Position numbers and translations under genes: made by a program. A stretch of 39,037 bases of DNA from a virus. This document shows, one piece after another, positions 1-2,724 of this stretch. The stretch lies in UHGV virus genome UHGV-2079062, one strand, 5' to 3'. Under the pieces are notes generated by a model. That model did no database searches, was not told the origin of the DNA, and saw only the letters and a list, made by a program, of their open reading frames with translations. The first letter of the stretch is position 1. Each line of letters opens with the position of its first letter.

Positions 1-120
1 TGAAAAACAGGCTGAGCACGGTGTACGTCAGCCCGGAAAAGTGCATATCCAGCAGAACATCATGAAAATAATGGGTACTGTAAGTAAGCGTGCAGCAAGA
101 ACCGTATTGACGGGGATGTG

Positions 121-1659
121 TTATTCAGTCGGCAGTGCTACGCGCCAGGGGAGCAGTTCGCCGACCCGGTTTATCGGCCAGTCGGCTATGACGTCAAGGA
201 CATAGCGGAGGTAGCTTTCTGGCTCCACTCCGTTCAGTTTGCACGTCCCGATCAGGCTGTACAGCAGCGCTCCCCGCTCTCCTCCATGATCCGAACCGAA
301 GAACAGGTAGTTTTTGCGGCCCAGACTGACCATCCGCAACGCATTTTCAGCGATGTTATTGTCCGCCTCAGCCCAGCCATCATCTGCATAGTACGTCAGC
401 GCCGGCCACTGGTTCAGGGCGTATGCGAACGCTTTCGCCAGTTCTGAGTGTCGCGACAGGGTTTTCATCTTTTCACGCAGCCAGCTTTCCAGGGATTTCA
501 GCAGCGGTTTCGTTTTCAACTGACGTTCGGCAAGGCGCTGCTCCGCCGTCATTCCCCTTATCTCTGCCTCGATGGCGTACAGTTCGCCGATCCGTTTCAG
601 CGCTTCCTCCGTCAGGGCTGACGGGGTGCGAACGTGCACATCGTGGATTTTACGGCGGGCGTGAGCCCAACAGGCGGCTTCCGTTATCCGGCCATCCCGG
701 TACAGCTCGTTGAACCCGGCGTATGCATCCGCCTGCAGTACACCACTGAACCCCGCAAGATGGGTCTGCGGATGGATGCCTTTTCTGTCCGGGCTGTAAG
801 CGAACCACACCGCCGGCGCCAGCGTTGACCCGGCGTTACGGTCGTCACGAACGTAGGTCCATAACCGCCCGGTCTTCGTTTTCTTATTGCCTGGCAACAG
901 CACCGGGACAGGCGTGTCATCAGCATGGAGCTTACCGTCAGTCAGCACATAGTCCTGAAGCGCTTCTTCCAGCGGTGACAGTAGCCGGCAGCATGCATCC
1001 ACCCAGCCCGACAGCAGTGAACGACTCAGCTCCACGCCCTGGCGGCCGTACATTTCAGACTGGCGGTACAGCGGGGTGTGCTCTGCATACTTTGAGATCA
1101 GCACGCGGGCCAGCAGCCCCGGTCCTGCGATACCCCGCTCGATGGGCCGTGAAGGCGCGGGGGCCTGCACGATGGCATCGCACTGAGTACAGGCATGCTT
1201 TTCACGTACAGTCCGGATAACCCGGAAGGCGCTGCGCATCAGCTCCAGCTGTTCGGCGGCATCCTCACCCAGATAGCTCAGCGAGCCTCCACATTCCGGG
1301 CAGCATGACGCTGCCGGCAGCAGCCGTTTTTCATCGCGGGGGAGTGATTCGGGGAACGGTTTGCGGGTGCGGGTTTGACGCAGCGGGCGCTGCACGGCCG
1401 GGTCGTCAACCCGACCGGTAAGGGTATCACTTTCTTTCTGAAGTGCCTTCAGGTCAGCTTCCATCTGTGCGATACGACGGGAGACTTTTTCCGAGCGGCT
1501 GCCGAAGTTCATCCGGCGCAGCTTATCCAGCTGTGCCTGCAGATGGTCTATTTCGCGTTCACGCTCGTTCAGCTTTTCCTGCAGGGCACGGTTCAGCGCC
1601 TCCTGTTCGGCAAGGAGACGTTTCAGTGCATTGATATCGTCAGGAAGTGAGCTGCTCAT
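121..1659 (-). CDS. IS66-family transposase (TnpC/Orf3)
   Basis: 512-aa ORF with N-terminal coiled-coil/leucine-zipper region, CxxC...CxxC zinc motif and conserved IS66 transposase core, recognised from translation. Confidence 0.9.
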
Positions 1660-1707
1660 ACCGGGTATATTACCAGGCTCATTCAGCGTCGACCAGGATA
1701 AAGAGGC

Positions 1708-2055
1708 TTACAACATAGTCAGGGACGTAAGCAGTCTTTTAGGCTGCCGCCAGTCGATACCTTCCAGCAGCATCGCCAGCTGTGCCGGTGTGAGGAACAC
1801 TTTGCCATCCCGGGCTGACGGCCAGGCGAAGCGGCCGCGCTCCAGCCGTTTGGTCAGCAGACACAGTCCATCGCCGGTAGACCAGAGGAGCTTTACCTGA
1901 CTGCCATTACGCCCACGGAAGATAAAAACGTGACCTGACATCGGATCGTCTTTCAGCGTCGTCTGCACCTTTGCCGCCAGGCCGTTGAAGCCGTTTCTCA
2001 TATCGGTGATGCCAGCGACCAGCCAGATCTTTGTCCCTGATGGTAATGGGATCAA
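1708..2055 (-). CDS. IS66-family accessory protein TnpB (Orf2)
   Basis: 115-aa ORF immediately upstream of the transposase, overlapping tnpA stop by 4 nt; sequence typical of IS66 Orf2. Confidence 0.85.
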   Translation of the reverse strand: MIPLPSGTKIWLVAGITDMRNGFNGLAAKVQTTLKDDPMSGHVFIFRGRNGSQVKLLWSTGDGLCLLTKRLERGRFAWPSARDGKVFLTPAQLAMLLEGIDWRQPKRLLTSLTML

Positions 2056-2456
2056 CGTTTGAGCTCCCGTATCAGCAGGTTCAGGATATTTTCGCTGATG
2101 GCACCATTCAGACGGAGTGATCCGTGCCGGAACGTCACTTCACAGCTGATATTGAGTGATTCAGGTGTCGCAGCAGCTACAGGTTGTGACCGGGGGGAGG
2201 TTGTAGGGACAACATCTTCGGCATCAAGTGTTATCGGGAGCAGCTCAGGCACGTTGTTTTCTGTTGTTGAAGGAGGACGTAGTTTTCCTTCGCGCCAGTA
2301 CTGGCGCCACTTGAACAGCAAATTATCGTTGATCCCATGCTCACGAGCGAGTTGCGCTACGGAGATCTCTGGTCGATGCGAGAGTTCAACCATTTTGATT
2401 TTGAACTCAACGGGATAATTAGGGCTTTTTTTACGCACTGCGGTTAATGATTTCAT
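2052..2456 (-). CDS. IS66-family accessory protein TnpA (Orf1)
   Basis: 134-aa ORF, first gene of the IS66 operon; helix-turn-helix-like N-terminus. Confidence 0.75.
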   Translation of the reverse strand: MKSLTAVRKKSPNYPVEFKIKMVELSHRPEISVAQLAREHGINDNLLFKWRQYWREGKLRPPSTTENNVPELLPITLDAEDVVPTTSPRSQPVAAATPESLNISCEVTFRHGSLRLNGAISENILNLLIRELKR

Positions 2457-2724
2457 GGATTGCGTCCACCATATTTGGTGTCCACTATTCTCTCAGGAAT
2501 TTCAGGATCTGCCAGACGGTGCTGAGACGACGCTTACGGTCGAGAAGCCCCACCTGAAATAGCAAATCTTTATCTTGGAAAAAAAATACCAGATGAATTA
2601 AGAAAAAAAGGAGCTATGTCCCCGGTCCGTTACTCACCTAATTTTTGAGTCTTTAAGTGATAAGCATAAACCGCAGCACGATCTTGCATACGACGTGCTA
2701 CGGCTTCCGACATCTTGCTAAACG

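Follow-up and report, generated by a model that had tools for sequence, protein, structure and literature searches.

An ISEc22 copy without a target duplication lies between gene fragments of two prophages, one of them a thrW prophage of Escherichia coli type

Introduction

What does an insertion sequence (IS) mark when the DNA on its two sides does not repeat? This question is raised by a 39,037-nucleotide stretch, UHGV virus genome UHGV-2079062 (hereafter the window, meaning the whole stretch of DNA analysed), in which an IS66-family element lies at the tail fibre end of a prophage between two dissimilar 8 bp flanks, the duplication length cited for IS66 being 8 bp (PMC6778807). The original prediction, made from the letters alone, had proposed that the element marks a deletion or rearrangement by which the distal end of the prophage was removed, with its attachment site and possibly cargo or an invertible fibre segment. 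Here we identify the element as ISEc22 and its flanks as the interiors of two genes belonging to two prophages, and we favour, with moderate confidence, the view that this copy is a hybrid at a rearrangement breakpoint, produced by recombination of two ISEc22 copies.

Results

The unit at 84..2537 is a complete ISEc22 of the IS66 family, 2454 bp long and on the minus strand, its length being equal to that published for ISEc22 (PMC5001619). Megablast analysis against 5,426 complete Escherichia coli genomes identified the element as ISEc22 with 99.7–99.9% identity over about 84..2537, and RefSeq-annotated copies on chromosomes and plasmids were 99.7–100% identical to 84..2537; chromosomal copies differed from the window copy at 0–8 positions, and several plasmid copies showed 100% identity across exactly 84..2537. 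The reading frames of tnpA, tnpB and tnpC are all intact, lie on the minus strand and follow one another in the gene order of IS66. tnpA (2052..2456; open reading frame list) encodes an accessory protein of 134 aa with a Pfam HTH_Tnp_1 match (E = 9e-12) and overlaps by 4 nt with tnpB (1708..2055), which encodes an accessory protein of 115 aa (TnpB_IS66, E = 1.6e-38), and tnpC (121..1659) encodes a DDE transposase of 512 aa (DDE_Tnp_IS66, E = 5e-107). All four domains PF13007, PF13005, PF03050 and PF13817 (LZ_Tnp_IS66, zf-IS66, DDE_Tnp_IS66 and DDE_Tnp_IS66_C) were detected above their cut-offs in TnpC, and 7,837 blocks of the protein collection contain exactly this protein. The complete IS66 unit that the original prediction had placed at about 84..2537 was thus located exactly.

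Inverted repeats of the IS66 family are expected to begin GTAAGCG. End alignment placed the tnpC-proximal terminal repeat, GTAAGCGTGCAGCAAGAACCGT, at 84..105 (plus strand), where it is unique in the window, and the tnpA-proximal repeat, ending ...CGCTTAC, at 2516..2537 (minus strand), the latter also on the basis of other ISEc22 copies. When aligned, the two termini share their first 8 nt and match at 15 of 22 positions, both starting GTAAGCGT. For comparison we assembled 15 other ISEc22 copies from 14 distinct sites, five of them from the chromosomal matches and 10 from a look-up of the exact TnpC protein. All 15 start GTAAGCGTGCAG and finish GACGACGCTTAC, and every one of them is directly abutted at both ends by a perfect 8 bp direct repeat, for example CTTTGTAA, GTCTGGAT, CTCTAATC, GTCTGAAA, GATGAAAG, CCCTGTTT, ATATCTCC or GACGAAAT. 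In the window, by contrast, the left flank is TACTGTAA (76..83) and the right flank GGTCGAGA (2538..2545), which agree at two of eight positions and are not a duplication. The mismatch noted in the original prediction is therefore a real anomaly, which counts against a simple insertion and not against the assignment to ISEc22. The ends GTAAGCG...CGCTTAC at 84 and 2537 are doubly confirmed, by the 15 other copies and by the flanks themselves, as homology to the uninterrupted left-flank gene ends exactly at 83/84 and homology to the uninterrupted right-flank gene begins exactly at 2537/2538. Shifted boundaries that would create a duplication were considered and ruled out, because the 15 copies fix the ends and both flank homologies break there.

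The left flank (1..83, minus strand) is an internal piece of the lambdoid tail assembly gene T, with 83/83 identity to annotated T genes; in 3,492 E. coli genomes a gene annotated as ‘phage tail assembly protein T’ is identical to it at all 83 positions. In the T frame the fragment reads YSTHYFHDVLLDMHFSGLTYTVLSLFF. Intact T reads ...GGGTACTGTAA followed by AAGCGGTGCC, whereas the window reads ...GGGTACTGTAA followed by GTAAGCGTGC; the first 116 nt of T are absent at this locus, and its 3′ part must run on beyond the left window edge. In the O157 strain PV15-279 intact T lies in a lambdoid prophage between gpG and the tape measure gene, on the strand that corresponds to the minus strand of the window, and the intact protein carries PF06223 (Phage_tail_T). 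The assignment to a lambda-type T rests on the 100% identity of the 83 bp to T genes situated between gpG and a tape measure gene, the left neighbours of the fragment falling outside the window. An open frame reading from these 83 bp into the IS had been pointed out in the original prediction; this plus-strand frame (41..205) runs antisense to the frame of T, which is 100% conserved, and its interpretation as a real gene or fusion was rejected as spurious on that ground.

Two further observations concern T. The T sequence just past the breakpoint (GTAA followed by AAGCGGTGCCAG) resembles the IS end GTAAGCGTGCAG, as seen on comparing window positions 76..100 with positions 4076..4100 of a T-bearing locus (L002), so that BLAST extended T matches into the IS. 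In an independent ISEc22 insertion in ais the flank also ends TGTAA (L015), and such flanks may reflect either chance or a weak preference for targets resembling the IS end. In E. coli E2855 (NZ_AP018796.1, 397613-437695; L031) a lambdoid prophage with the same T allele is located at the tRNA-Arg gene argU, and IS1203 truncates its tape measure gene, which is joined to the hemB region; this type of T-bearing prophage is thus an IS-associated rearrangement breakpoint in another strain as well.

The right flank begins with the 3′ remnant of a PD-T4-3/CMoRE (LEM-3-like GIY-YIG) nuclease gene (2538..2648, plus strand), which is 100% identical to the gene ends of WP_000355484.1 in BE311, SCU-118 and other genomes. 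The longer stretch 2538..3140 was 100% identical in seven genomes, and in these 2538..2648 forms the 3′ end of a 257-codon gene annotated as ‘LEM-3-like GIY-YIG domain-containing protein’ and convergent with the tail fibre assembly gene tfa. The intact gene reads ...GGTTTTGAA followed by GGTCGAGAAGCC. In the window 111 bp are left, the last 36 of 257 codons with the TGA stop (2646-2648), and this locus lacks the 5′ 663 nt and with them the nuclease domain. The full-length relative in BE311 matched PADLOC PD-T4-3 over positions 1-256 of 256 (E = 2.4e-140), and the full-length protein matched the crystal structures PDB 9U75 (E = 1e-172) and 9U7U (E = 1e-150). Both structures are of CMoRE, a prophage-borne restriction endonuclease of type IV specific for DNA with 5-hydroxymethylcytosine (5hmC) or glucosyl-hmC, by which T-even phage DNA so modified is degraded (PMC12923530), and activity of CMoRE in a native host has been reported (bioRxiv 10.1101/2024.12.20.629700). 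The remnant of 36 C-terminal codons is not a functional member of PD-T4-3.

The remnant is followed by a 76 bp spacer (2649..2724), delimited from the sequence and the annotation of relatives, across which it converges with tfa (2725..3138, minus strand; open reading frame of 137 aa with a weak Caudo_TAP match). tfa is the last structural gene of the prophage, and the same protein adjoins fibre genes in many prophages. The distance of 187 bp from the IS to the tfa stop codon (from 2725) was correct in the original prediction, but not all of it is spacer, as 111 bp belong to the truncated gene.

From 2538 to 39037 the window is collinear with E. coli BE311, and also with F41 and K99S, at 99.8–99.9% identity. 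Over 36.5 kb the window prophage differs from that of BE311 by six substitutions, a 5 bp and an 11 bp deletion and a run of 21 N, and because the differences are so few BE311 is a valid IS-free reference for the missing DNA. The prophage is integrated beside the tRNA-Thr gene thrW and proA, and has a lambda-type early region (N, cI-like, cII, O, P, ren, nin, Q and Red) and a Mu-type contractile tail (sheath, tube and gp45-48-like baseplate); the window ends 96 nt into int. Beyond PD-T4-3, BE311 carries IS421, an AraC-family regulator, an rve remnant and then a 49 bp direct repeat of the thrW 3′ end. This repeat, which is also present in SCU-118 and other genomes, is the distal attachment (att) site and lies 3.4 kb from PD-T4-3 in BE311. 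Compared with its close relatives, the window lacks the 5′ 663 bp of PD-T4-3, the AraC-family regulator, the rve remnant and the 49 bp att repeat, and a search for the att core within the window found none.

The checks proposed with the original prediction concerned contiguity of the flanks in relatives, definition of the IS ends and a search for the attachment repeat: the interior of T (1..83) and the end of PD-T4-3 (2538 onwards) were contiguous nowhere in the genomes searched, the ends were fixed by the other ISEc22 copies, and the repeat was located beyond PD-T4-3 in BE311. The central proposal, an IS-mediated rearrangement by which the prophage lost contact with its distal end, is upheld by flanks taken from two genes and by distal DNA and an att site known from relatives. 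That the distal end was actually removed stands in so far as the att repeat and the cargo have been cut off, deletion and inversion both being compatible with the junction. The proposed invertible fibre segment did not hold up. In close IS-free relatives neither an invertase nor an invertible segment was found between tfa and PD-T4-3, as tfa is followed by 76 bp and then directly by PD-T4-3, and with 99.9%-identical IS-free relatives lacking such a segment its loss was ruled out. Only in another prophage context, of e14-like type, is PD-T4-3 followed by the pin invertase gene (pinE), and there homology to the window stops at 2707.

The PD-T4-3 3′ end together with 59 bp downstream (2538..2707) shares 99.4% identity with these e14-like prophages, where it lies next to pinE. 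PD-T4-3 thus acts as a cassette that is exchanged between two types of prophage, the limit of homology being at 2707.

ISEc22 is multi-copy in E. coli and is frequently situated in lambdoid tail genes. Four of the 14 comparison sites (L017, L021, L022 and L028) are in tail or head-tail genes of lambdoid prophages, namely in a tail tip fibre gene, between K and L, next to a major tail gene and in a tape measure gene. An IS-dominated query (1..2800), which also picks up more distant IS66-family elements, matched a median of three and up to 30 places per E. coli genome.

Several differences between the window prophage and BE311 were observed outside the junction. The large terminase gene (minus strand) has a 5 bp deletion at 20680..20720, in which ACACCTCACGG is reduced to ACACGG, and is split into two open reading frames (19299..20747 and 20680..21027); the frameshifted fragment had no exact record in the protein collection. 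If genuine, this frameshift leaves the thrW prophage unable to package DNA, and hence defective irrespective of the IS event. The 21 N at 27471..27491 lie in the region of a NinE-family gene, where BE311 has 16 bases, and may represent a masked stretch or an assembly gap, which bears on possible mis-assembly. The glycine-rich tail fibre gene (3138..4052, minus strand) is intact in the window and encodes 304 aa, whereas BE311 has a 205-aa open reading frame and an ‘stfP’ pseudogene; substitutions at 3394 and 3413 distinguish the two, and the exact 304-aa protein had no record in a large protein collection. Upstream of the prophage porin gene (24286) the window has one copy of the 11 bp unit CCAACAAATAA and BE311 two tandem copies. 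Beyond the distal att repeat, BE311 (L003, 1..9600) has another integrase island, in which an HsdM-like methyltransferase, an ORC/CDC6-like ATPase and a BREX-1 system are encoded; at its thrW locus mobile elements with many defence genes are thus arrayed in tandem.

Discussion

The T and PD-T4-3 flanks each continue differently in uninterrupted genomes, and since they are the interiors of two genes in two prophages, each cut exactly at the IS end, the window copy is not a simple insertion. According to the explanation that we prefer, one ISEc22 would have inserted into T of a lambdoid prophage, duplicating TACTGTAA, and another into PD-T4-3, 111 bp before its stop, duplicating GGTCGAGA, the latter target being cargo at the tail fibre end of an SfV-like prophage at thrW. 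The two 2.45 kb copies would then have undergone homologous recombination by the host, with a single IS as the product that has the left flank of one insertion and the right flank of the other, so that TACTGTAA and GGTCGAGA presumably represent one duplication copy each of the original insertions. A process of this kind is documented for the Agrobacterium tumefaciens plasmid pAt15955, in which a 270 kb deletion by homologous recombination left one IS66 with mismatched 8 bp flanks, each of which matches the outer flank of one parental IS66 copy (PMC6778807).

Some results speak against this history. Neither parental insertion was present in the collections searched, and the two insertions are thus reconstructed from the flanks of the product. 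Neither junction (T to IS or IS to PD-T4-3) was found in the 5,426 complete E. coli genomes or in phage and plasmid records, and exact 30/31-mers of both were absent from species-representative genomes and JGI metagenomes. The two junction-spanning open reading frames likewise had no exact record in the protein collection, and no junction occurred among the places shown for the exact-protein matches of tfa and TnpC. The proposed history also takes three events, against two for intramolecular transposition, in which a single ISEc22 in T (or in PD-T4-3) would have attacked the other site on the same chromosome and caused an adjacent deletion or inversion, keeping its donor flank on one side and acquiring on the other a new flank without a matching duplication. 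Such an event gives exactly the junction sequences observed, and the absence of both parental insertions from the 5,426 genomes is in its favour. The transposition chemistry of the IS66 family, however, is not established, all 15 other ISEc22 copies are simple insertions with duplications, and the documented IS66 route is recombination between resident copies; we therefore regard intramolecular transposition as unlikely, and we are decidedly sceptical that ISEc22 made the junction by this means in one step without duplication. If it did, the locus would provide natural evidence for replicative or intramolecular strand transfer in the IS66 family giving adjacent deletions or inversions, and a one-step event would, in addition, have joined two prophages and eliminated a defence gene active against T-even phages.

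An assembly chimera would account for the same junctions if two ordinary ISEc22 insertions in T and PD-T4-3, both with duplications, had been joined by their wrong flanks across the 2.45 kb repeat. The IS exceeds the length of short reads, no second instance of the junction pair occurs in any collection searched, and the 21 N could be an assembly gap, all of which agrees with a chimera. On the other hand, the N run could just as well be masked sequence, assemblers normally end a contig at a repeat of this kind instead of bridging it, and the rest of the window shows no mis-join, 36.5 kb being collinear with BE311, so that we consider an artefact rather improbable. A simple insertion whose 8 bp duplication has decayed, or which was made without one, has nothing in its favour beyond the bare absence of the repeat; with two agreeing positions of eight and with two genes of two prophages each truncated exactly at the IS end, it is refuted for practical purposes and retains only a vanishing probability.

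Whether recombination between two ISEc22 copies would have deleted the missing distal DNA or only moved it depends on their orientation, and the window is compatible with both. Directly oriented copies, such as those of tandem prophages or of co-oriented neighbouring ones, would lead to deletion of the intervening DNA. Copies in inverted orientation, for example in prophages on opposite replichores, would lead to inversion of the segment and to a reciprocal hybrid IS elsewhere in the genome. The reciprocal junctions are predicted to read ...GGTTTTGAAGGTCGAGA followed by GTAAGCGTGCAGC... (the 5′ part of PD-T4-3, then the IS end as at 84) and ...GACGACGCTTAC followed by TACTGTAAAAGCGGTGCC... (the IS end found at 2537, joined to the remainder of T). 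The T remnant and the late operon of the thrW prophage run in the same direction, the 3′ part of T leading away from the IS. A T-bearing prophage that lay nearby and co-oriented, such as one in tandem at the thrW att repeat, would yield this junction through loss of a few tens of kb containing no essential genes. Inversion would require the T-bearing prophage to be oppositely oriented, which is typical for prophages of the other replichore. E2855 carries the same T allele at argU, and hemB, folD, cysS and lpxH are visible in that stretch. From the K-12 map we take argU and thrW to be about 300 kb apart and these four genes to be essential; a deletion starting from an argU-sited T prophage is implausible, because about 300 kb with these essential genes would be lost.

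At this locus PD-T4-3 is cut to 36 codons and non-functional, T has lost its start, and the thrW prophage is cut off from the AraC-family regulator cargo and from its distal att repeat. Being cut off from distal att, it can no longer excise by int/att recombination, and with the large terminase frameshifted in addition it is probably locked in and defective. The left end of the window is thus a breakpoint into a second prophage and not the edge of the thrW prophage. Loss of the anti-T-even PD-T4-3/CMoRE could change the phage sensitivity of the strain. The event is an ordinary, strain-specific IS-mediated rearrangement; both the phenomenon and the IS are already known, and no new kind of element is involved. 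It adds one more case to the well-documented role of IS copies in prophage tail genes as portable homology for rearrangement. What is added here is the identity of both flanks, an inventory of the separated DNA, the recognition of the plus-strand open reading frame as spurious and the conclusion that no invertible segment is to be expected, the significance of which lies mainly in annotation and strain biology.

Compared with known systems, the window element corresponds to the ISEc22 reference in sequence (99.7–100%), in its tnpA-tnpB-tnpC organization and in its GTAAGCG termini, and differs from other ISEc22 copies in lacking the 8 bp target duplication that all 15 comparison copies have. 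The thrW prophage resembles SfV-like prophages that integrate at thrW, the comparison being with Shigella phage SfV: it shares the thrW-proA site, the lambda-like N, cI, cII, O, P and Q genes with Red, and the Mu-like gp45-48, sheath and tube, but it is without O-antigen modification genes, and the IS and a foreign T fragment stand in the place of its distal arm and att site. With respect to PD-T4-3/CMoRE, the 111 bp are identical to the 3′ end of the gene and occupy its usual place beyond the tail fibre assembly gene, whereas the GIY-YIG nuclease domain is gone at this locus. The closest parallel to the junction as a whole is the hybrid IS66 of pAt15955, as both are single IS66-family elements whose differing 8 bp flanks come from two sites and mark a large rearrangement. 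In pAt15955 both parents and the deletion were observed experimentally, whereas in the window the parents are deduced and either deletion or inversion may have occurred; and unlike the plasmid event, that in the window joins two prophages, presumably on the E. coli chromosome.

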